From positions 1 to 44,049 of the forward strand of contig NVSS01000025.1 in assembly GCA_002732805.1 (NCBI GenBank): a stretch of 44,049 nt of DNA, written 5' to 3'. The notes beneath the pieces were generated by a model, which did no database searches, was not told where the DNA came from, and saw nothing but the letters and a program-made list of their open reading frames with translations. Position 1 is the stretch's first letter; every line of letters starts with the position of its first letter. Positions 18,807 to 44,049 of this stretch are shown here, piece after piece. This DNA comes from Coxiella sp. (in: g-proteobacteria) (GTDB taxonomy: Bacteria > Pseudomonadota > Gammaproteobacteria > Coxiellales > Coxiellaceae). Position numbers and translations under genes: made by a program.

Positions 18807-19866
18807 CTTTAGATTCCTCCTCTGCGTATGCTCCTCTCTTAAATACATTATCTAGGATACCTCCAGCTTCTATGTAGCTAACCTCAAATCCTGCAGCATT
18901 CTTATGCCCTCCTCCTCCAAAGATTTTAGCTATAGCAGAAACATCTGTATCTCCTACGCTTCTTAGGGAGAATGTGAATCTTCCAGGTTCGCCTACTAAA
19001 GTCTTACCTAATGCAGTGAACTCATCCATATCAAATAGGAGACAAGGAAGTTGGTGCTTCTCTGCTACATAATTACCTACAGCAGAAGTAAACTCTACAG
19101 GACAGGTAGCAGCTAGCATCTTATGCCCAGCTATGGTTACTGGTAGTGTCTCCTTGCCAAAGAACTCTACCTTCTTCTCATGCTCAGCTAGCAATCTGTT
19201 CCCTGCTATTACTATCCTGCTCCTAGTATCATGCTGCTCAAGATCTGCTGCTGCTCTATCCCAAGCAGAGAAAGTTTTAGCTAACTGCCTCAGGTACATG
19301 TTAATAGCTTTAGTCTCTGAGTACTCAAACTGATACAGGTCATAATCCTGTACATACTCTACTAGAGTTTCGCCATGATTAGGTAGCATACCCCCAAAGA
19401 ACTCCGCACAGATGCCTGCTCCGCTAAGGGCATTAACTAATACTATAGCTGTATTCAGCTCAGGTATCTTTTTAAAGAGCTTAGAGTCTTTATCAACTAC
19501 ATACCCTTTCTCTGCATACATCTCAAAGGCAGTCTTGTGGTGATCTAGGATCATTATAGCTATCTCAGGACCAGTGGGTGCTTCCTGTAGCTTCTCTATC
19601 CAAGCTAAAGATACAGAGAAGTCTACTATGTATAGGTTAGTATACATCCCTACAAGGATCATATTGTGTAGATCAGTCAGACTCTTCTCATTGTAAGTCA
19701 CACCTAAGCAGTCTATAATTGCATTAGGTCTAGCCTTCTCTAAGCTCCTAGCTGTAACCCAAGCAGATGTAAAGCCATCTATGCAAGGATCATGATAAGC
19801 TATTAGGATTCTTTCTTTTGCTACTGAATCTTTCTCTTCATTAGGGGTTTCTGTTTCTATGCTCAT
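18793..19866 (-). CDS. DHH/DHHA1-family phosphoesterase (NrnA/RecJ-like, 357 aa)
   Basis: Motif I AYHDPCIDGFTSAW, motif II LYIVDFS, motif III ILDHHKT, and DHHA1 motif FGGGGHKNAAGF. Confidence 0.8.
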   Translation of the reverse strand: MSIETETPNEEKDSVAKERILIAYHDPCIDGFTSAWVTARSLEKARPNAIIDCLGVTYNEKSLTDLHNMILVGMYTNLYIVDFSVSLAWIEKLQEAPTGPEIAIMILDHHKTAFEMYAEKGYVVDKDSKLFKKIPELNTAIVLVNALSGAGICAEFFGGMLPNHGETLVEYVQDYDLYQFEYSETKAINMYLRQLAKTFSAWDRAAADLEQHDTRSRIVIAGNRLLAEHEKKVEFFGKETLPVTIAGHKMLAATCPVEFTSAVGNYVAEKHQLPCLLFDMDEFTALGKTLVGEPGRFTFSLRSVGDTDVSAIAKIFGGGGHKNAAGFEVSYIEAGGILDNVFKRGAYAEEESKDGNN

Positions 19867-21290
19867 ACTCTATGTGCTCCATCTTCAAGTTGTTTAATAA
19901 GATCTAAATCAATCGTACCTTCTTTCGCTTTACTCATTACCTTTCTTACAGGTAGGTACTTCTGGTCTCCTACATCCTGTATCTTATTTGCTCCTGTAAG
20001 GTTAGATAGTATCTCTGCAAGTTGTAGCCTAGACTCTAGATCCTGGTGTACCAGTTTCCATATCTGTAAGAAGCTGATAGGATTAGGAGTCGGCCCTATC
20101 ATTGCTTGATCTATTGCAGTTACAATTGTATGACTTACTCCGCTATTCCTAGCCTTACCAAACTCACCTAAAGCCTTAGGCATTAAGCTCTCAGTATAAG
20201 TAAGCATAGCATTGGCATATCTAATATCTTCTGGTAAGATCTCAGTGCTGATTCTTGATGCAGCTACAACCATGCAGAGTTTTATTAGATGCGAGAGTCT
20301 TCTACCTGAGTAGTGTTCGAATCTAAGATCTTCAAGCGGCTCCCATGAATGGTAGATTATATCTAATAGCTCTCTAGATTCATCAGTCATTGTAACCTCT
20401 CCAACAACTTCTGCTTTTATTCTATGCAAGATGCCTATCAGATCTCTCTGCAAGTCTAAGTCCGGCGGCGGTGGAAAGGTATACTTAACTCCTGTAGGCT
20501 CCCCGTAGACTAAGAGTAATCTGGAGAAGAAGCCTTGTCCTGCTGTCTCAGGTGGGAATGCCTGATCAAAGCCAGTAGCAGTAGTACCTCCTAAGATAGA
20601 TATAGAAGGATAAGGAATGAATAGACTCTTAGCATTCTTCAGCCTGTAATCATACACTCCATCAAAGTCCCATAGATCTCCCAAAAGAGATATGAAATCT
20701 AGGTTCTTTAAACCAAGGAAGACATTAAACTCATCAGCAGCTATGAAGCATTCAGTAGGTTCTCTATCTATGTACATACTCTTAGTAGAGGTTCCTGCTT
20801 CTTCTCCCCATAGATTCTGCTCCAGCATACTTACGTCTGTGTCTAAATCTAGAGATCCTGCTCCGGCCAATCTATCACTCTGCAAAGCTAAGTCTTCTAG
20901 GAACTTCTCTTGCCTAGTCTTCTTAGCTGCAAAGGTATCATACCCAGCAAGACCAAGAAGCTTAGAGCTCATCTTAATAGCACTAGACTTCCTAGCTCCT
21001 GGTGAACCTATAAGTAAGGTATACATGTTAGGATAGATTGTAAAATGCCCATGCCTAAAGTACATGCTTCTTCCTAGGTATGCAGCTAAAGAAGTTATAG
21101 CAGCCCACCTATGAAAGAAAGTAGGACACTCAGTTTTGTTTGTATAATCTAGATAAGTAGCTACGAAGTTTACAGCACTAGCAGGCTGCTGCACTTCTTC
21201 TACAAGGGGTGCATCTAAGAATATATCTACCTGCTCTACCTGTTCTTCAGGCTCCAGGGACTCTGAAAGAGGCGATACTTCTAATACCAT
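19863..21290 (-). CDS. DUF3987-type P-loop NTPase, putative replicative helicase (475 aa)
   Basis: Walker A LLIGSPGARKSS, preceded by the FHRWAAITSLAAYLG... context typical of DUF3987/YfjI-like proteins. Lies next to the DNA polymerase gene. Confidence 0.55.
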   Translation of the reverse strand: MVLEVSPLSESLEPEEQVEQVDIFLDAPLVEEVQQPASAVNFVATYLDYTNKTECPTFFHRWAAITSLAAYLGRSMYFRHGHFTIYPNMYTLLIGSPGARKSSAIKMSSKLLGLAGYDTFAAKKTRQEKFLEDLALQSDRLAGAGSLDLDTDVSMLEQNLWGEEAGTSTKSMYIDREPTECFIAADEFNVFLGLKNLDFISLLGDLWDFDGVYDYRLKNAKSLFIPYPSISILGGTTATGFDQAFPPETAGQGFFSRLLLVYGEPTGVKYTFPPPPDLDLQRDLIGILHRIKAEVVGEVTMTDESRELLDIIYHSWEPLEDLRFEHYSGRRLSHLIKLCMVVAASRISTEILPEDIRYANAMLTYTESLMPKALGEFGKARNSGVSHTIVTAIDQAMIGPTPNPISFLQIWKLVHQDLESRLQLAEILSNLTGANKIQDVGDQKYLPVRKVMSKAKEGTIDLDLIKQLEDGAHRV

Positions 21291-33113: not shown

Positions 33114-34142
33114 CTATAGATCTCCGAATTCAGATTTGAGTACTTCTGTAGCAGCCAGCCTAGCAGCTTCTGCCCTGTCTTTATTAAGCTTGACTCTATA
33201 AGCTAACTTAGCCTTGATGAAATCAATGTTAGTACCATAAGAGCGGCGCTCAGGGATAGCAGAAGGAGCAGCCTTAGCTATCTCTGCTACAAGAGTCTCA
33301 GATTCTACTATCTTAGTCTTGTCAGATAGAGAGGGAAGGAGAGTATAGCCTAAAGTAGAAGAGCCGCCCCCTAGATAATCTAAGTGCCTGCCTATTCCTT
33401 CCTGTAAGACTTTTATAAGAGTGTGGAAGTAGATTGAACCTGCATCTATATTACACTCACAGAAGTCTTTGATCTCTTTAAGAAGAGGTAAAGGAGTCTT
33501 AAACATCTTATTGGTGTTAAAGCAGGACTCTATTGTTTTCTTGTAGAGAGTTACTTTAGCAGCTGGAAACTCTCCTGCCTTGTGCGCCCAATCTGCTACT
33601 ACATTAGCATACAGCTCAGTTTTAATTTCTGGCGCTAGGATGAGAGCTTGCAGCTTTCTTTCTATTCCTGCTAGAGCTGTGCGTTCTCTTTCTTCTGCCC
33701 TAGAATAAGTAAAGCTCTCTAGATTATCTTGCCAAGCTTCTATCCAGATAGGGATCTCTTCCAGAGCACAGTTAGCAAAGGTAACTCTAAAGGAGGGCTG
33801 AGTGAAAGAGCTGTAAGAAATGAGAGCAGTTTTCTCCAGAACTCCTATCAGTTGCGAGAAGTTGTTAGCTACCAGCTTTGCTGTAGAAGGAGCCTTAGGA
33901 TCTATAGCTAAGGGATGTCCCCACTCTATCTGATCAGAAGAGTGTAAGAACGCCAGAAAAAGCAGGTAGCTGTCTATAGCTCCCAGCTTACCTTTGGTAT
34001 AAGAACCATAGAGCTTATAGAGAGAAGAATAAGGTGCTGCAAAGATAGGATGGAAATAGCCTTCCTTATATTCTATGCTTAGATCTTTAAAGGCTGATAC
34101 CTGAAAGTCTAAGCCTGAGATTGCACAAGTTACTTGAGTCAT
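33114..34142 (-). CDS. Hypothetical protein (342 aa)
   Basis: ORF coupled to the upstream gene by an ATGA overlap. No motif recognised. Confidence 0.7.
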   Translation of the reverse strand: MTQVTCAISGLDFQVSAFKDLSIEYKEGYFHPIFAAPYSSLYKLYGSYTKGKLGAIDSYLLFLAFLHSSDQIEWGHPLAIDPKAPSTAKLVANNFSQLIGVLEKTALISYSSFTQPSFRVTFANCALEEIPIWIEAWQDNLESFTYSRAEERERTALAGIERKLQALILAPEIKTELYANVVADWAHKAGEFPAAKVTLYKKTIESCFNTNKMFKTPLPLLKEIKDFCECNIDAGSIYFHTLIKVLQEGIGRHLDYLGGGSSTLGYTLLPSLSDKTKIVESETLVAEIAKAAPSAIPERRSYGTNIDFIKAKLAYRVKLNKDRAEAARLAATEVLKSEFGDL

Positions 34143-34633
34143 AAGCTTTGCTCCCCGCTATCTCCTAGGGAAGATCCTTCTGCACCTTTAATGAATTCTG
34201 CCTTCTCAAAAGCAGTTATCTCAGCAGGAGTCATAAGATCATTAAGGTATCTGTGTTCTTGCGCACAGGTTATCTCTTCTAAGGAGCAGGAGCCTATATC
34301 TTCTAGGTACTTCTCATAGCATTGCAGCCAGTAAGCATCTCTCTCCTTAGCAGATGTATACCTTGTAGCTAGAGTTTCTGCAGAAGCTTCTCCGCCTAAA
34401 GATTCCAGTAGGTCAGGAGCAGGTACAGCAAGAGTATAAGCAGGTAAGAGAGCTTCATTCTGTATCTTAGCTTGGAATGGCGCTAGGATCTTTACCAGTT
34501 CTATAGAAGTGTAGTAACTTGCATCTGCTGAATCACTCATAGCACTAGCTATATGCTTCTTAGAGAGAGACAGAATGTGGGTAATCTGTGGACCTGTTAG
34601 AAGAGGTCTGTACTTGTTTCTTTTCTTGTTCAT
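34139..34633 (-). CDS. Hypothetical protein (164 aa)
   Basis: ORF in the operon. No motif recognised. Confidence 0.65.
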   Translation of the reverse strand: MNKKRNKYRPLLTGPQITHILSLSKKHIASAMSDSADASYYTSIELVKILAPFQAKIQNEALLPAYTLAVPAPDLLESLGGEASAETLATRYTSAKERDAYWLQCYEKYLEDIGSCSLEEITCAQEHRYLNDLMTPAEITAFEKAEFIKGAEGSSLGDSGEQSL

Positions 34634-35387: not shown

Positions 35388-35767
35388 TATACTTGATCTC
35401 CCTGTTTAGAGCAGAACTCAGCTACCTTATTTTGTAAGAGCAGCTCTATAACACAGAATGCTTCACATACTGGCATGATAAGATCTGCCTGAGAGCTTGT
35501 AACTTCAACTCCTGCTGCTGTCAGTTCTTTAAGCTCCTTGATCTTACCTAAGAGGGCTGAATAGCCTTGCGCTGTTATGTGTTCCTTCTCTGCATCTCCT
35601 ATATAAGGATCTAGCTTAGCTATCTTGATAAGAGCATAGTCAGCTAACAGGCCATTTACAGCTATAAAGAATAAAGAGTCTTCTTTAACTGCCATAGCTG
35701 CCTGAGCAGATAGGCGCCTAAGAGGGTTATACCTATCAGGTATAAGATTAGAAAGGTTCATACTCAT
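35387..35767 (-). CDS. Hypothetical protein (126 aa)
   Basis: ATGA coupling with the upstream gene. Confidence 0.65.
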   Translation of the reverse strand: MSMNLSNLIPDRYNPLRRLSAQAAMAVKEDSLFFIAVNGLLADYALIKIAKLDPYIGDAEKEHITAQGYSALLGKIKELKELTAAGVEVTSSQADLIMPVCEAFCVIELLLQNKVAEFCSKQGDQV

Positions 35768-36717
35768 AACTTTAATATCCTTACTAGAGCTTGTACGTGC
35801 TCGCTAGTTATTTTTAGTTTATGTTTAGCTTCATCTCTGTCACTAACCCTTGTTAGCTCTTCTCTGGCCATTAGCAGCAAGCCATTAGAAGTAGCTAGGT
35901 CTGCTTTAAGCTGGTCTATTATAAATAGGTTAGGCGCACTTTTTAGATCTGCGTACTTCTTTCTTTCAGCTACTAGGTTATCTGTAGTTTCTTTCAGCGT
36001 GCTTCTTAAAGAGGTGATAGTATCAGTCAGCTCTAGGTTATCTTTACCTGCGCCCGCTTGCATAGCTACTAGATTCTTTTGCAGCTCTTTTATCTGTCTG
36101 TGTAAGGTTGCTACCTGCCTCTCTAATCTTGCTATCTCTACAGCATCAACATGCCTAAGAGCTGTAAACTCAGCAATCCTAGGATCTGTAGCCATTGTGT
36201 GCCTAGGGCCAACCATAGCTTCTTCTAACATATGCTCACAGTTAGTTAGCTCTGCTAACTTCTCAGCTAGCTGCTCTTTCAGTTTAGTATTATTAACACC
36301 TCTAACATAGTATCTATCTCCTAAATCCTGAGCTGCTTTTTCTAGCTTAGCGTAGACTGTACTTGCCATCTTAAGCTGCTCTTGCAAGCTGGTATTAGTA
36401 GCAGTAAGCTGGTTGTTACTCCTGTCACAGTTAGCTAGCTTAGCTCCAGTTCTATTAGACCTTTTTAGCAGATCTTCATAGCTCTCCTTGTGTTTGTTTA
36501 GGTCAGCTATATAAGCTTCTGCTGCACCTTCTAGACTCTTCCTGTCTACTGCTGTTAGCGCTGTTATTCTCATTAGAAGCCCGCTGTTTGTATCCTTAGC
36601 TTCTGACAGCTCCTTATCCTTGGCGGTAGCTACTGCTAACATAGCCTTGTATTCTATGCTTTTCTTGTTTAGCTTGTGGTTAGCTTCTGCTAACTGCTCA
36701 TGTAAGTACTGTGTCAT
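35764..36717 (-). CDS. Long coiled-coil protein (317 aa from the ATG at 36717)
   Basis: Heptad-rich sequence throughout. I prefer the ATG at 36717 (AAGG-N8-ATG), because the 61 upstream codons of the listed ORF fall on the TGGCA/TGCCA repeat arm, which is mirrored in clearly non-coding DNA. Confidence 0.65.
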   Translation of the reverse strand: MTQYLHEQLAEANHKLNKKSIEYKAMLAVATAKDKELSEAKDTNSGLLMRITALTAVDRKSLEGAAEAYIADLNKHKESYEDLLKRSNRTGAKLANCDRSNNQLTATNTSLQEQLKMASTVYAKLEKAAQDLGDRYYVRGVNNTKLKEQLAEKLAELTNCEHMLEEAMVGPRHTMATDPRIAEFTALRHVDAVEIARLERQVATLHRQIKELQKNLVAMQAGAGKDNLELTDTITSLRSTLKETTDNLVAERKKYADLKSAPNLFIIDQLKADLATSNGLLLMAREELTRVSDRDEAKHKLKITSEHVQALVRILKL

Positions 36718-36792
36718 GTGAAGTACCTTGTATTCCTTCTCTCTAAGAGAGTAAATTAATTGTATAAGACTCAATGACTTGGCATGGTTCTT

Positions 36793-36862
36793 GCTTGCAA
36801 GTAATTGAGGTGTTTGGCAAAAGGTGCCAGACTGTGCCATTTTGCCATAGTGCCAAACCGAT
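36793..36862. repeat. Left arm of a ~70-bp imperfect inverted repeat carrying a TTGGCA/GTGCCA array
   Basis: cttgcaagtaattgaggtgtttggca...gtgccaaaccgat compared with the reverse complement of 37270..37338 (cttacaagtaattaaccagtttggca...atgccaaaccagat). The outer ~26 nt match at 21/26 and the inner ~12 nt match well. The middle has diverged but carries the same pentamer motifs. Confidence 0.7.
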
Positions 36863-36921
36863 GTCCACCCCTTTGTGCATGGGTCTGTTTCTAGGGGCAT
36901 AGTAGTCCCTAACAGGTATAT

Positions 36922-37106
36922 ATAGGAGTAGCAGGGCAGAGGGGCATATAGGAGTATCTATATAACAGGGTAGGTATAGCTCTAGGAGAGGGAGAAGGGT
37001 ATAGGAGTCTCTCTAATAGGTTATGTCTCTCTGACGGGCATGTCATTTTTATAGGGGGGTATCAAATTTAATGTAACATGATTCTATTCTTATATACTAC
37101 TCCTAT
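36922..37106. repeat. ATAGGAGT repeat cluster that switches orientation across an AT-rich centre
   Basis: Forward copies at 36922, 36948 and 37001. A reverse copy (actcctat) at 37099. AT-rich segment at about 37040..37095. One more reverse copy at 38826..38833 lies in the other long intergenic region. Confidence 0.65.
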
Positions 37107-37269
37107 TTACACCCCCTTAGATAGATACTGTTACATACCTACACTGATAGGCACAGCTACAGGTAGGAGCTAGATACAGCTAGCTACATACGCAACAGGG
37201 AGAGATACATACAGGAGATATAAGAGACTACTCCATCCTAGGGGAATACCCTCACCCATACCCCCAAAT

Positions 37270-37338
37270 ATCTGGTTTGGCATTCTGGTATTTTGGCTAC
37301 TATCAGCCATTGTGCCAAACTGGTTAATTACTTGTAAG
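37270..37338. repeat. Right arm of the inverted repeat (see 36793..36862)
   Basis: tctggtttggcattctggtattttggctactatcagccattgtgccaaactggttaattacttgtaag. It also contains a possible minus-strand promoter, TTGGCA-N17-CAAAAT (37290..37318). Confidence 0.7.
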
Positions 37339-37353
37339 AGACAGGATCAAACA

Positions 37354-37383
37354 AGCACTACCTTTAACTAAACAGATAGTGCT
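37354..37383 (-). terminator. Putative terminator of the leftward early operon
   Basis: Perfect 7-bp stem (agcacta 37354..37360 pairs with tagtgct 37377..37383), followed on the minus strand by TTGTTTGAT. Confidence 0.45.
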
Positions 37384-37413
37384 TTCTGCTGCTTTGCTTT
37401 CTGCTCTCTTAGT

Positions 37414-37613: not shown

Positions 37614-38327
37614 TTATAATGCTAGCAGTAGATCATTCTCTTTTTCTGCTAGCTTTTCCAAGCGAGCTGTAAACCTAGCATCCAGACTGGAAGGAGAGCC
37701 TCTTTCTGCTGCTACCTTCTCTAAGAGATCAATCATAGAGATGCAATCTTCTGGTACTAGGTTAGCCTTGGGAGAAGCAAGAGAGCAGAACTTAGCCTCG
37801 TAAGCTCCTAGAACAAACGCTAGCTTCTCTTGCGAGACACCTTTAGCTATAAACAGTTCTTTCAGATGCGTAGCAACTTCTTTGGCGAACCATTCAGTGA
37901 TCATATCTTTGTTTAAGCGAGATCCCTGATCAGTTGTATCTAAGTAATCCATTACCTTAGACAAGCTTAATGCTCTGGTATAGACACTTATTGCGCCTGC
38001 TTTATGCTCAGCCTTAATCATTGCCTCTTCTGCATTCTGTAGGAAAGAGAGAACATAGGGAGCTAGCATACTAGCAGAGGCTTCTACTAGTTCTAGATTT
38101 AAGTGTTCAGTAGGGATTCTGACAAACTCAGATTCTCTAATCTTCTTATTTGTGTTCTTATTGGTTTGGTAAAGGCACTTAACTATTCTAGTCCCTCCTA
38201 TTTCCTTAATCTCCAATTGCGAGTCATAAGCTTTATATGATCCACACAAGTCGTGCAGAGATACTTCTGCTGATTCTGCTGCTTGTGGCTCTGTAGCTTG
38301 GTTCTGTACTTGATTGAGAGTATTCAT
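37614..38327 (-). CDS. Early hypothetical protein (237 aa from the ATG at 38327); distant paralog of the 29358..30122 product
   Basis: The listed start at 38369 is a GTG, whereas the ATG at 38327 has AAGGA upstream. C-terminal colinearity with the 254-aa protein; ends in LLLAL. Confidence 0.7.
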   Translation of the reverse strand: MNTLNQVQNQATEPQAAESAEVSLHDLCGSYKAYDSQLEIKEIGGTRIVKCLYQTNKNTNKKIRESEFVRIPTEHLNLELVEASASMLAPYVLSFLQNAEEAMIKAEHKAGAISVYTRALSLSKVMDYLDTTDQGSRLNKDMITEWFAKEVATHLKELFIAKGVSQEKLAFVLGAYEAKFCSLASPKANLVPEDCISMIDLLEKVAAERGSPSSLDARFTARLEKLAEKENDLLLAL

Positions 38328-38411
38328 ACTAATGTAGATCCTTTGAAAGTTTAAGAAAGAGTAAGACACTAATAGAAGCAGCTAGTGTTTCGATCTATTA
38401 GATCTCGTCAG

Positions 38412-38845: not shown

Positions 38846-38971
38846 CCTTATTTACATCTATTTGCATGTAGTTGGTAGCATGCCGAAGGCAATAGTAGAA
38901 TCTAGGATCTTCTGAAATGCTTCAGCCTCTCTCCTAAAAACTAAATACAACTCCTAGCACTACCTTGTTAG

Positions 38972-39080
38972 CTAACAGAAACACCCTATCCTATACCTAC
39001 CAGTATCCTAAAGGGGCATCTCCCTAACAGTATCTTGCAGTAGGAGCTAACAATCTAACAGTTCCTACAAGGTTCTAACA
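38972..39080. repeat. Array of five CTAACA hexamers within ~110 bp
   Basis: Copies at 38972, 39024, 39047, 39055 and 39075. The same hexamer occurs at 36909 within the shared TCCCTAACAG motif. Confidence 0.5.
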
Positions 39081-39277
39081 ATGCAGGTATGCCCCAACAT
39101 AAAGGGTAGGGGGGTCCAAGCCTTTTTGATTCTTAGCTGGGTGCTTATCCTAAGGAAGCCCTCAAATATTACTAAACTTTTACCTGCTTTTACCAGAACT
39201 AGCAGAGTACCTATAGCACTTGTAGCAGAAAGAAGCAGAAGAACCTATGCCTAAGAGAGAAGCAGAAGCAGCCCCAC

Positions 39278-39609: not shown

Positions 39610-40386
39610 ATGGACATACCAGATACAGACTTAAATAACTCTATCTTAGAATCTCTTGGCGGCGAACCTACTGAACCTGCTGAGGCTTTTGTAGAAACTG
39701 AGCAGAATCCAGGCATAACAAAAGTTGGAGCAAAGGAAGGTAATACTCATTCTACTGGAGCAACTACTTCTGTAGAAGAGAAAGCTTTAACTCTCTTAGG
39801 TAGCGGTATCCGAGCAGAAGCAGTAGCTGCAGCTTTAGGAGTAACTCCTGCTAGGATCTCACAGCTCTTAGCAGACAAAGAGTTCTCAGGCAAAGTATCT
39901 GAGCTGCGATATGAAAACTTGCAGTCTCACAATAAGAGAGATTCTAGCTATGATTCTATAGAAGATGACCTCTTAGTTAAGCTGAAGCGCTCTGTGCCTC
40001 TTATGGTTAAGCCGGATACTATTCTAAGAGCAATATCAGTAGTAAACGCAGCTAAGAGGCGCGGGCAATCTGCTCCTGAACAAGTTACAAACCAGACAAC
40101 TATGGTAACTTTAATCTTACCTAATGTAATAGCCCAGAAGTTTACAACCACTATCGACAACCAAGTAATAACAGCAGGCGAACAATCCCTAGTTACAATG
40201 CAATCAGGTGACCTACTAAGTCAAGTTAAATCAGCTCAGGCTAGAAAACTAGAGCAAGCAATGGAAGCAGCAGAGCCCGCAGAAACAGTTCCTGCAGCTC
40301 CAGCGACAATAGTAGCACCAAAGAACCCAGAGGAGATCTATCATGAGTCTAGCAGAGAGGCGGAGAAGAGAGAGTACATCTCATAG
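39610..40386 (+). CDS. Terminase small subunit candidate (258 aa)
   Basis: Lies upstream of TerL. HTH-like segment AEAVAAALGVTPARISQLLAD. Acidic N- and C-termini. Confidence 0.45.
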   Translation: MDIPDTDLNNSILESLGGEPTEPAEAFVETEQNPGITKVGAKEGNTHSTGATTSVEEKALTLLGSGIRAEAVAAALGVTPARISQLLADKEFSGKVSELRYENLQSHNKRDSSYDSIEDDLLVKLKRSVPLMVKPDTILRAISVVNAAKRRGQSAPEQVTNQTTMVTLILPNVIAQKFTTTIDNQVITAGEQSLVTMQSGDLLSQVKSAQARKLEQAMEAAEPAETVPAAPATIVAPKNPEEIYHESSREAEKREYIS

Positions 40387-42617: not shown

Positions 42618-44049
42618 ATGGTTGCTTCTACCTCAGTACCCCTAACAGTTAAGTCTCAAGAGTCCTTTATTTCCTTCTATCGTTCTCTGCAGCTTTTGCA
42701 GAATATAAATAGAGGAACTTCTAGGGATCGCTATGAGCTTATAGATAGAACCTATCAGAGAGAGATGGATCTGTCTAAAGAGAATGCTGATGCTAAGGCA
42801 GCTAACAAGGCAGGAGATCCTAGTAGATTTCAGAATATAACTGTCCCTGTAGTAATGCCTCAGGTAGAAGCAGCTGTAACTCATCAAACTTCTGTATTCC
42901 TTACTGGTGATCCTTTGTTCTCAGTTGTAGCATCTGCAGCGTTTATGAAAGAAGCTCTGCAGCTGGAAACTATCCTTGAGAACAACAGTATAAGAGGAGG
43001 CTGGTCTCGGGAACTAATGATGTTCTTCAGAGATGGCTTTAAGTATAACTTCGCGCCCCTGTATGTAGGGTGGGATCAGGAAGTAACTTATACTCCGCAA
43101 ACTGACTTAGCTGTATCTACCAAAGAAGGTATACCTAAGAAGGTTATCTGGTCTGGTAATACTCTGCGCCGTCTTGATCCTTATAACACCTTTATAGACA
43201 CTAGAGTTTCACCTTCTGAATTCTATAAACATGGAGAGTTTGGAGGCTGGACTGAGATGATGTCTAGAATCAAGCTTAAATCTTTCATTGCTGCTCTCCC
43301 AGATAAGATAACTTCTAACATAAAGCCTGCTTTTGAGTCTGGCATGTCTACTCCTTCAACTGCTGCTGTAGATACTGGAGCTCAGAACTTCTATATTCCT
43401 TCTATCAACCCAGCTATCAATGCTTCTGAATATAAGAACAGTGGAACTAACTGGATGCGTTGGGCAGGTATGAATAGCAGAGGGGATCGCGCTCCTATAG
43501 ACTACAAAGATGCATACGAAGTTACTACTTTGTTCGCTAAAGTACTCCCTGGAGAGTTCCACCTGAAGATCCCTAATCAGAATACTCCTCAGATATACAA
43601 GCTGATAATCATAAACCATAGCCATATCATCTATGCTGAGCTGCAGACTAATGCTCATGGACATATACCTATCATGGTAGGTGCTCCTTTAGAAGATGGC
43701 CTAGATTACCAGACTAAGTCCCTAGCTACCAATGGTACTCCTTTCCAAGAACTAGCAACTACTTATATGACTTCTATTATAGCCTCTCGCCGCAGAGCTA
43801 TATCTGACCGGGTCTTATATGATCCCTCTAAAATAACAAAGGCTGCTATTAACTCTCCCAATCCTTCTGCTAAGATTCCAGTTAAGCCTTCTGCTTACGG
43901 AACTCCTTTGCAGGAAGCTGTATATGCCTTCCCTTATAGAGAAGACCAGTTAGCTGCTTCTATGGGTCAGATACAGAATATCATAGCTTTAGGTAATCAG
44001 CTTACTGGGCAGAATCCTGTATCTCAGGGACAGTTCATTAAGGGTAATA
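42618..44049 (+). CDS. Portal protein, 5' part. It runs off the window end and continues at 100..689; 43951..44049 duplicates 1..99.
   Basis: The ATG at 42618 lies 4 nt after the endolysin stop. I translated by hand to the window end without meeting a stop. It is missing from the ORF track because no stop falls within the window. The phase matches 12..689. Confidence 0.8.
   Translation, partial: MVASTSVPLTVKSQESFISFYRSLQLLQNINRGTSRDRYELIDRTYQREMDLSKENADAKAANKAGDPSRFQNITVPVVMPQVEAAVTHQTSVFLTGDPLFSVVASAAFMKEALQLETILENNSIRGGWSRELMMFFRDGFKYNFAPLYVGWDQEVTYTPQTDLAVSTKEGIPKKVIWSGNTLRRLDPYNTFIDTRVSPSEFYKHGEFGGWTEMMSRIKLKSFIAALPDKITSNIKPAFESGMSTPSTAAVDTGAQNFYIPSINPAINASEYKNSGTNWMRWAGMNSRGDRAPIDYKDAYEVTTLFAKVLPGEFHLKIPNQNTPQIYKLIIINHSHIIYAELQTNAHGHIPIMVGAPLEDGLDYQTKSLATNGTPFQELATTYMTSIIASRRRAISDRVLYDPSKITKAAINSPNPSAKIPVKPSAYGTPLQEAVYAFPYREDQLAASMGQIQNIIALGNQLTGQNPVSQGQFIKGN
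43951..44049. repeat. Right copy of the 99-bp exact terminal repeat
   Basis: Identical to 1..99. Confidence 0.95.

Follow-up and report, generated by a model that had tools for sequence, protein, structure and literature searches.

A group-wide mirrored repeat element with a built-in early promoter, and possible genome junction, in uncultivated phages and the PaP2-like phages of Pseudomonas

Contig NVSS01000025.1 (assembly GCA_002732805.1, deposited as Coxiella sp.), 44,049 nucleotides long and hereafter called the window, is the circularly assembled genome of an uncultivated phage of ~44 kb, and has its counterpart in an ENA metagenome scaffold. Between two operons of this genome lies a repeat element in which two arms, built of short and regularly phased units, stand in mirror orientation on either side of an AT-rich centre, one of them carrying the promoter of the early/replication operon. 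Comparison of sequences confirms that the element is real and conserved throughout the group, for over 30 related phages that are uncultivated show the same layout, as do PaP2, 119X and PaMx41, which are cultured phages of Pseudomonas. An original prediction made from the letters of the window had described the region as non-coding DNA with dyad symmetry, and had put forward a replication origin, a transcriptional switch, the physical genome ends and a structured RNA as candidate roles. The reading that we favour, tentatively and at a probability of roughly 0.4, is that of a genome-junction or packaging site combined with the leading early promoter.

A mirrored repeat element at the head of the replication operon

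The minus strand of the window carries a short operon (118-, 251- and 54-aa genes), located between the terminase-proximal divergent region and the element, and a long block that runs from 36717 down to 17821 and forms the 19-kb early/replication operon. The element is the gap separating these two same-strand operons, and lies 2.2 kb from the small terminase gene. Its left arm, downstream in the direction of transcription, aligns with the reverse complement of the right, upstream arm at 51 of 72 columns (71% identity), with a score that stands at z = 9.1 against shuffles and is matched by none of 2949 genomic 69-mers (coordinates are collected in Table 1). TGGCA/TGCCA units occur 79 times in the 44 kb, or 0.18 per 100 bp genome-wide, and reach a density of 6 per 100 bp at the left arm only, with no more than 2 everywhere else in the window; the Poisson probability of at least five units in 70 nt is 2e-7. 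On the minus strand the left arm reads TGGCA-N3-TGGCA-N3-TGGCA-N5-TGGCA-N5-TGCCA, and the same order (8-bp spacing, then 10-bp spacing, then a convergent pair) is found in 12 relatives with TGGCA-type units. The right arm retains just two exact units, the remainder being degenerate (TGGTA, TGGCT, AGCCA). The only occurrences of CAAGTAATT in the whole window are at 36798 on the plus strand and at 37326 on the minus strand, and, with both this sequence and the unit cluster confined to the region, the element is found once in the genome.

For the region as a whole, inverted 6-mer pairs exceed dinucleotide shuffles (z = 4.2), with their modal centre on the AT-rich stretch, and folding as single-stranded DNA gives z = -3.3 against shuffles. 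The AT-rich centre is modest, at 68-72% A+T over 37040-37119 versus 58% for the genome. The inner halves on either side of it differ in composition, minus-strand G+T being 0.59 in the upstream half versus 0.42 in the downstream one, and in the orientation of their motifs: TATCT occurs five times forward and once in reverse in the upstream inner half of the window, and when summed over 24 phages its forward-to-reverse ratio is 96:6 in upstream inner halves and 11:38 in downstream ones. Four of the nine copies of ATAGGAGT in the window are found here, three forward and one reverse. Thus the inverted arms of ~70 bp, the TGGCA/TGCCA arrays, the large-scale dyad symmetry, the exact placing of the ATAGGAGT copies and the AT-rich centre, all of which the original prediction had read from the sequence, are borne out; its suggested comparison of the repeats with shuffled controls came out the same way, for the arms and the 6-mer pairs alike.

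Table 1. Features of the repeat element and its immediate flanks, in window coordinates
Feature	Position	Strand	Details
Transcribed leader and start of first long-operon gene	36715..36792	-	CTAAGAGAG motif; AAGG ribosome-binding site 36726-36729; ATG 36717-36715
Downstream (left) arm	36793..36862	.	Plus-strand TGCCA at 36825, 36835, 36843, 36851; TGGCA at 36815
Outer end of left arm	36794-36806		CTTGCAAGTAATT
Sigma-70-type promoter	36839..36867	-	-35 TGGACA (36867-36862), 17-bp spacer, extended -10 TGgCAAAAT (36847-36839); consensus scan
Downstream inner half, C+A-rich on minus strand	36905..37039	-	Three ACTCCTAT (plus-strand ATAGGAGT at 36922, 36948, 37001); counterpart faces them at 37099
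AT-rich centre, centre of symmetry	37040..37095	.	A+T 0.72 at 37040-37079; modal centre of inverted 6-mer pairs
Conserved core	37042-37066		Minus-strand TTTGATACCCCCCTATAAAAATGAC
Upstream inner half, G+T-rich on minus strand	37100..37240	-	TATCT-type motifs; GGAGTAGT at 37096-37106 and 37227-37234
G-run boundary, inner side of upstream arm	37241..37265	-	Minus-strand GGGGGTATGGGTGAGGGTATTCCCC
Upstream (right) arm, degenerate mirror of left arm	37270..37338	.	Plus-strand TGGCA at 37278, TGGTA at 37286, TGGCT at 37294, AGCCA at 37305, TGCCA at 37313
Outer end of right arm	37326-37338		AATTACTTGTAAG
Terminator-like hairpin closing the short upstream operon	37341..37392	-	RNA fold -19.6 kcal/mol; weak T tract

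Conservation of the layout and co-variation of the arms

Relatives were retrieved through the helicase of the long operon (39 IMG/VR loci), through the small terminase (61 metagenome loci), by DNA pattern and by exact-protein look-ups; the DUF3987 protein also worked as a query. A search of IMG/VR with the two flanking proteins returned no relatives, and no DNA similarity to the region was found among 50,697 phage records. Alignment with related genomes, which the original prediction had proposed, placed the layout at the same syntenic position in more than 30 phages: 16 IMG/VR relatives, at least seven metagenome relatives reached through the small terminase, seven contigs from the pattern scan (the hits of which included some unrelated tandem repeats), two Logan contigs, and PaP2 and PaMx41. 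That position is constant, with the terminator of the short operon that neighbours the small terminase gene on one side and the opening gene of the replication operon on the other, so that the placement first described for the window recurs in its relatives. The cultured phages Tiera and Aeromonas P5 are too distant and have no mirrored short-unit arrays; the equivalent position of Tiera (L041, 43391-44172) is occupied by a tandem duplication of ~84 bp rich in CCCC runs.

Read in the direction of transcription, the relatives inspected share a single architecture. The stop codon of the last short-operon gene is followed by an intrinsic terminator, which in the relatives is a clear GC stem with a T run, and then by an outer array that opens with a convergent pair, TGGCA-N5-TGCCA, and continues with inward TGCCA units at an 8-bp period. 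A G-run (GGGGTAT) leads from this array into a G+T-rich half with many TATCT, GTATCTA and CTAACTAC motifs; then come the AT-rich stretch with its core, AAAWWTGATACCCCTAAATATAGAC, and a C+A-rich half bearing the motifs of the G+T half in inverted orientation. The sequence ccccTTGACAT follows, and 5-7 bp further on begin TGGCA units at an 8-bp and then a 10-bp period, closed by a convergent TGCCA, after which a leader and a ribosome-binding site precede a variable first gene. The GGGGTAT-like runs after the upstream array are answered on the opposite side by ATACCCC before the -35 element. The two arrays lie 240-450 bp apart in mirror orientation, and dyad symmetry, centred on the AT-rich core, is significant in almost every relative (z 1.7 to 10.8); the AT-rich stretch is longer in some relatives than in the window. 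The central motif GATACCCC-TAAATATA is conserved group-wide, and the core AAAWWTGATACCCCTAAATATAGAC is found again in relatives irrespective of their array unit, and in PaP2 as well.

The unit itself differs from phage to phage, yet both arms of any one phage share it in mirror orientation. Besides the TGGCA type there are phages with TGTCA (L007, L010), CGACA/TGTCG (L018, L020, L111), CTGGC/GCCAG (L005) and GGTAAAAT-like units (L026), while L029 has TAGGATAT five times in one arm against ATCCTAAT in the other, L127 has GTTTCA five times against TGAAAC four times, and GAGTCA is set against TGACTC in L134 and CAAGGT against ACCTTG in PaP2. An automated count of units against their mirror images was noisy where the boundaries were imprecise. 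Among 12 TGGCA-type phages, units of the same orientation are spaced by 8 bp 40 times and by 10 bp 13 times, and convergent units by 10 bp nine times and by 20 bp five times, with divergent pairs never occurring; the short cores at fixed phase, in direct and inverted copies, that mark a phased multi-site operator are thus present. Only the units are shared between the arms, the spacers differing in length (8-bp versus 10-bp series) and in sequence and lacking complementarity, as judged by eye and from unit positions. Because of this, the symmetry is better explained by protein-binding sites than by an RNA or DNA hairpin. The co-variation of the units points, at the level of sequence, to a phage-encoded sequence-specific protein whose specificity would drift together with its sites.

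An early promoter in the downstream array

The conserved promoter sits in the left arm, directly upstream of the first gene of the long operon, and transcription in the window is predicted to start near 36832 on the minus strand. In relatives the -35 element is the consensus (cccc)TTGACA(T), at a distance of 5-7 bp from the start of the array, so that TGnCAnnnT, at a spacing of 16-18 bp, is provided by the second unit; the promoter of L014 is even TGGTATAAT. Units beyond the second one extend over about +1 to +45. In L026 and in every phage of the TGGCA type, both the -35 and the extended -10 element fall within the array, and a promoter at least adjacent to the array is present in every relative inspected. 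No -35 element is found in the right arm, nor in the upstream arms of the relatives inspected. The TTGGCA-N17-CAAAAT promoter that the original prediction had located in the right arm does exist as a match, but relatives do not conserve it, the conserved promoter being instead that of the left arm. A sigma-54 promoter (TGGCAC-N5-TTGCW, which needs GG and GC 12 bp apart) was also considered and rejected on spacing, TGGCA-N5-TGCCA giving 10 bp and TGGCA-N5-TGGCA 11 bp.

The claim that the region holds no credible open reading frame (ORF) needs some qualification, as the longest ORF of the first gene, 35764-36900, crosses the left arm. The public call for this gene starts at 36840 (358 aa), and such an extension does no more than read through the array. 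In the relatives that were checked, no ORF covers the homologous arrays, and the ATG is preceded by a ribosome-binding site and by the leader motif CTAAGAG, common to the window, L005, L011 and L017, which supports both a start at 36717 (317 aa) and the non-coding status of the region. The first gene behind the conserved promoter is a variable one, being RadC/JAB-like in L011 (6226-6774) and encoding a Cys-rich protein with CxxC repeats in L006 (7620-7943), with a further case in L004 (6170 onward). This variability suggests that the position after the promoter is a cargo slot for early genes, possibly ones for host take-over or anti-defence.

Record ends of cultured relatives

The gene map of PaP2 is that of the window, with a short leftward operon, a divergent small terminase gene and a long leftward operon for a helicase, a polymerase and a DUF3987 "primase". 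Its non-coding region consists of a terminator, CAAGGT three times, ATACCCCTAATAATAAAGAATTTTTT and ACCTTG four times, and both ends of the linear PaP2 record fall within this region, at a distance of ~35-60 bp from its core. The records of PaP2, 119X, PaMx33, PaMx35, PaMx41, PaMx43, PaMx46 and Ph_15 start and end within a base or two of one position, and in records that were opened elsewhere those two ends are directly adjacent or at most 2 nt apart. The deposited records thus suggest, without proving it, that the element holds the physical ends or the site of the first packaging cut. At the join of the PaMx41 record (L164/L165), which reads cacTTAT|ATAAGggg, a 10-bp palindrome is centred exactly; PaP2 does not have it. 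PaMx41 reportedly possesses a linear, terminally redundant genome with early, middle and late modules, which we take as a lead only.

Proteins encoded near the element

Two conserved proteins of these phages show little variation where they would contact DNA. The small terminase helix-turn-helix, ALGV[TS]P..ISQLL (ALGVTPARISQLL), does not vary among 23 phages, PaP2 included, that between them use at least nine unit types, and the DUF3987 protein keeps its C-terminal winged-helix-like domain across phages of the TGGCA, TGTCA and CTGGC types. Since these helices stay invariant, neither protein can encode unit specificity, and both are ruled out as readers of the variable units; they would be natural candidates for reading the conserved core and the inner motifs. 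The DUF3987 protein itself (19863-21290, minus strand) is an AAA+ ATPase with the motif GSPGxxKS and a conserved C-terminal winged-helix-like segment, and is labelled a DNA primase in PHROGs; no primase domain was detected in it, and it may be of the initiator or helicase-loader type.

The early protein of 118 aa, which the original prediction had proposed for an electrophoretic mobility shift assay, is without homologues in those relatives whose arrays are the same. Many relatives encode, directly upstream of the element, a homologue of the 251-aa protein (237 aa as called; 37614-38369, minus strand), for which 20 homologue clusters were found. Its AlphaFold2 model consists of a beta-hairpin and helices (predicted local distance difference test score, pLDDT, 75), and no match was found in Pfam, in the PDB or with Foldseek; PaP2 gp01 is not homologous to it. 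It is out as the array binder, being missing from L006 and L011, which carry the best arrays.

The ends of the window, 1-99 and 43951-44049, are identical over 99 bp and represent the overlap of the circular assembly, and the portal gene (673 aa in the public call) spans them. The plus strand encodes an SU10-type major capsid protein and the small (39610-40386) and large terminase subunits, and the long minus-strand block encodes a superfamily 1 (SF1) Dda-like helicase, a PD-(D/E)XK nuclease, a family-A DNA polymerase (PolA), the DUF3987 AAA+ protein and a DHH phosphoesterase. Two minus-strand genes immediately upstream of the helicase gene encode proteins of 342 aa (33114-34142) and 164 aa (34139-34633), which are kept in relatives whose loci extend that far. 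The former has 235 homologue clusters and a confident AlphaFold2 model (pLDDT 86) without a fold match, and no PDB entry matches either protein in sequence. Among cultured phages even the closest are remote, with 30-37% identity in the large terminase and PolA; they are Aeromonas phage P5, EBPR podovirus 3, Polaromonas phage Tiera and the Pseudomonas PaP2/119X/PaMx group (family Fredfastierviridae).

In the divergent region by the small terminase gene, at 39095-39190 on the minus strand, there is another conserved non-coding element (AAAAGTTTAGGAAA ... TTAGGATA ... AAAAAGGGTCTATACCCCCTCC), which is also found in L107, L114-L116, L119, L120, L137, L141 and L144. It has ATACCCC in common with the core and edges of the repeat element, and the combination CTGTTAGGGA..ATGCCCC occurs both in the divergent region and inside the repeat element (36895-36918). 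About five copies of CTGTTAG lie in the divergent region at 38960-39075 on the minus strand.

Function of the element

As a genome junction or packaging site joined to the leading early promoter, the element would be a unique cis-acting site, symmetric around a conserved AT-rich core, where DNA is recognised and cut for packaging. The ends of virion DNA would fall at the element, with the strong host-type promoter of the early/replication operon just inside one of them. One fast-evolving phage protein would bind both arrays cooperatively, much as ribbon-helix-helix or Cox/Xis-type proteins do on phased repeats, bringing the arms together and looping out the core. In TGGCA-type phages it would lie over the -10 element and the 45 bases transcribed first, and so shut the promoter. 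Group-conserved proteins would read the core and the inner motifs, with the small terminase as the leading candidate, the invariance of its helix-turn-helix fitting recognition of conserved inner motifs. After ejection, the promoter, ~200 bp from the leading end, may drive early transcription inward, as in T7. A transaction at the centre is indicated because the structure is symmetric about a conserved centre, a symmetry that a one-sided promoter leaves unexplained, and packaging is ranked first because of the position of the element, the record ends of the PaP2 group and known precedents. A narrower version, in which both sides of the cut, and with them both virion DNA ends, carry mirrored arrays for a fast-diversifying junction-binding protein other than the terminase, coupling the recognition or bridging of ends to the leading early promoter, is considerably more doubtful than the general reading.

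Several observations weigh against a junction. One expectation for a terminase site, that the small terminase helix should change with the repeats, failed, and neither in this helix-turn-helix nor in the winged helix of the DUF3987 protein is there variation to match that of the arrays; moreover, 20 nearby and small ORFs gave no Pfam or PHROG match to a DNA-binding domain, ribbon-helix-helix and helix-turn-helix candidates included. In L029, L111 and L127 the promoter lies beside the array and not within it, so that occlusion of the promoter is not universal. Homology of the PaP2 region with that of the window is suggested by layout and a short core motif, the sequences themselves not being alignable, and to take the starts of PaP2-type records for true physical ends is to infer, as later depositors may have copied the start of PaP2. 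The PaMx41 record has no repeat at its ends and no annotated terminus. The proposal that the genome ends lie here is the one with most support from outside the window, in that records of cultured relatives begin and end in the homologous region, but none of the metagenomic contigs examined ends at the core. Two Logan contigs of 44-47 kb run straight through it, which disfavours unligated cohesive ends; such read-through is compatible with terminal redundancy or with intracellular DNA.

It is also possible, at a lower probability than a junction, that the element is purely a transcriptional switch. The downstream array would then be an operator over the promoter of the long operon and the upstream array an auxiliary one, with a single repressor looping ~400 bp between them, as in lambda OL-OR, lac and gal, to time or autoregulate the operon, and with the core and inner motifs serving only to bend DNA. 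Much about the arrays agrees with this: the -35 and extended -10 elements are inside the array in all TGGCA-type phages and L026, the 8/10 bp phasing of direct and convergent units is the pattern of a cooperative small repressor, the arms co-vary, and the units cluster nowhere else in the genome. The symmetry, however, is centred on a core that is kept across phages with different units, which a loop spacer would not need, and the three phages with a promoter outside the array do not fit. No repressor candidate is kept among TGGCA-type phages, the 251-aa neighbour being missing from L006 and L011, and the record starts of the cultured relatives in this region are left unexplained. The multi-operator switch of the original prediction has direct support in the sequence, where a phased array contains or adjoins a conserved promoter, but it does not account for the conserved core. 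A bidirectional replication origin, with the arrays as iterons for a phage initiator on both flanks of an AT-rich unwinding element and the embedded promoter providing autoregulation or transcriptional activation, is somewhat less probable again. Mirrored short repeats do surround an AT-rich centre at a unique site that heads a replication operon with an SF1 helicase, PolA and a DUF3987 AAA+ protein ending in a winged-helix-like domain, and a promoter within the iteron array is typical of iteron replicons. Against this, neither in the window (68-72% over ~80 bp) nor in PaP2 is the AT-rich stretch long or pronounced; 24 regions yielded one DnaA-like box and no consensus for integration host factor; the DUF3987 C-terminal domain is unchanged across unit types; and the local switch in strand composition runs opposite to leading-strand skew. 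Cumulative GC skew, which had been suggested as a check, is confounded by gene orientation, which it tracks, and has its minimum at 40-41 kb, away from the element. An origin thus gained no support, the DnaA signal being missing and the candidate initiator showing no co-variation.

The junction, switch and origin readings are not mutually exclusive. Two further possibilities are effectively excluded. The original prediction had allowed for a structured non-coding RNA or a 570-nt leader, with a hairpin formed by the two arms, and the single-strand fold of the region (z = -3.3) and the consensus promoter match in the right arm would agree with such a transcript. This is most improbable, as Rfam yields nothing even at E <= 1, relatives do not conserve the right-arm promoter, and the arms have only their short units in common, with spacers of different lengths that are not complementary. 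With a terminator ahead of the region and the conserved promoter at its far end, transcription of the gene strand probably bypasses most of it. Equally hard to credit, and if anything less probable still, is a mobile or invertible segment, either an insertion like a miniature inverted-repeat transposable element, with terminal inverted repeats, or a promoter inversion switch. The inverted ends CTTGCAAGTAATT and AATTACTTGTAAG, ~545 bp apart, could be read in this way, but the genome has one copy, the arms are only 71% identical, no recombinase was detected, and the layout, its sequence having diverged, keeps one syntenic position across a set of over 30 divergent phages.

Known counterparts and significance

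The components of the element are of known kinds, namely phased repeat operators, repeat-flanked packaging sites and junction-proximal early promoters. Packaging sites whose cut is flanked by repeat clusters include P1 pac, SPP1 pac (pacL-pacC-pacR) and lambda cos (cosQ-cosN-cosB). Like them, the element is unique, lies close to the terminase genes and has clusters of short repeats flanking a centre, and linear records of its cultured relatives begin and end there. It differs from these sites in its larger span (~550 bp), in the promoter built into one array, and in a small terminase helix-turn-helix that is invariant while the arrays vary. At the T7 concatemer junction, the short-repeat arrays SRR and SRL flank a 160-bp terminal repeat that is followed by the early promoters A1-A3; the element shares with it a non-coding segment between short-repeat arrays and strong promotion by the host polymerase towards early genes, from a place that would likewise be just inside the leading end. 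The CCTAAAG heptamers of T7, however, are direct on both sides and also occur inside the repeat, whereas the arrays of the element are mirrored around a conserved core.

Short cores of 4-7 bp, phased at 7-10 bp and bound cooperatively, are found in the ParG OF operator and parH of TP228, the omega heptads of pSM19035, the metboxes of MetJ, and the Cox, Apl and Xis arrays. The element is like these ribbon-helix-helix operators and Cox/Apl/Xis arrays in having phased direct and inverted cores, which in TGGCA-type phages and L026 overlap a promoter, but it possesses a second, mirrored array 240-450 bp away and a conserved core, and no ribbon-helix-helix protein was found. Mirrored short repeats, an AT-rich centre and a place at the head of replication genes are also features of the ori of Staphylococcus aureus pathogenicity islands (SaPI), the octamers of P4 ori and the origin recognition boxes (ORB) with DNA-unwinding element (DUE) of archaea; unlike these iteron-set origins, the element has a candidate initiator without co-variation, a weak AT-rich element and no DnaA signal. 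To our knowledge, neither the combination of mirrored, co-varying units of 5-8 bp, an 8/10 bp phase, a core and a fused promoter, nor any such element in this phage group, has been described.

This large phage group has received very little study, its only cultured members are the distant phages PaP2, 119X and PaMx, and most of the genes examined around the element are without a family match. The grammar of this hub, with phage-specific mirrored units at 8/10 bp phase, a conserved core and an embedded promoter, provides an anchor for orienting genomes, for locating the early promoter, and for designing tests of packaging specificity and host take-over. The matched change of unit in both arms is a natural experiment on how specificity in DNA recognition evolves. 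If the arrays serve a separate protein that binds genome ends or junctions, this protein would be a new player in the biology of phage packaging or genome entry, and a class of junction elements would span a large group of uncultivated podoviruses and the Fredfastierviridae.

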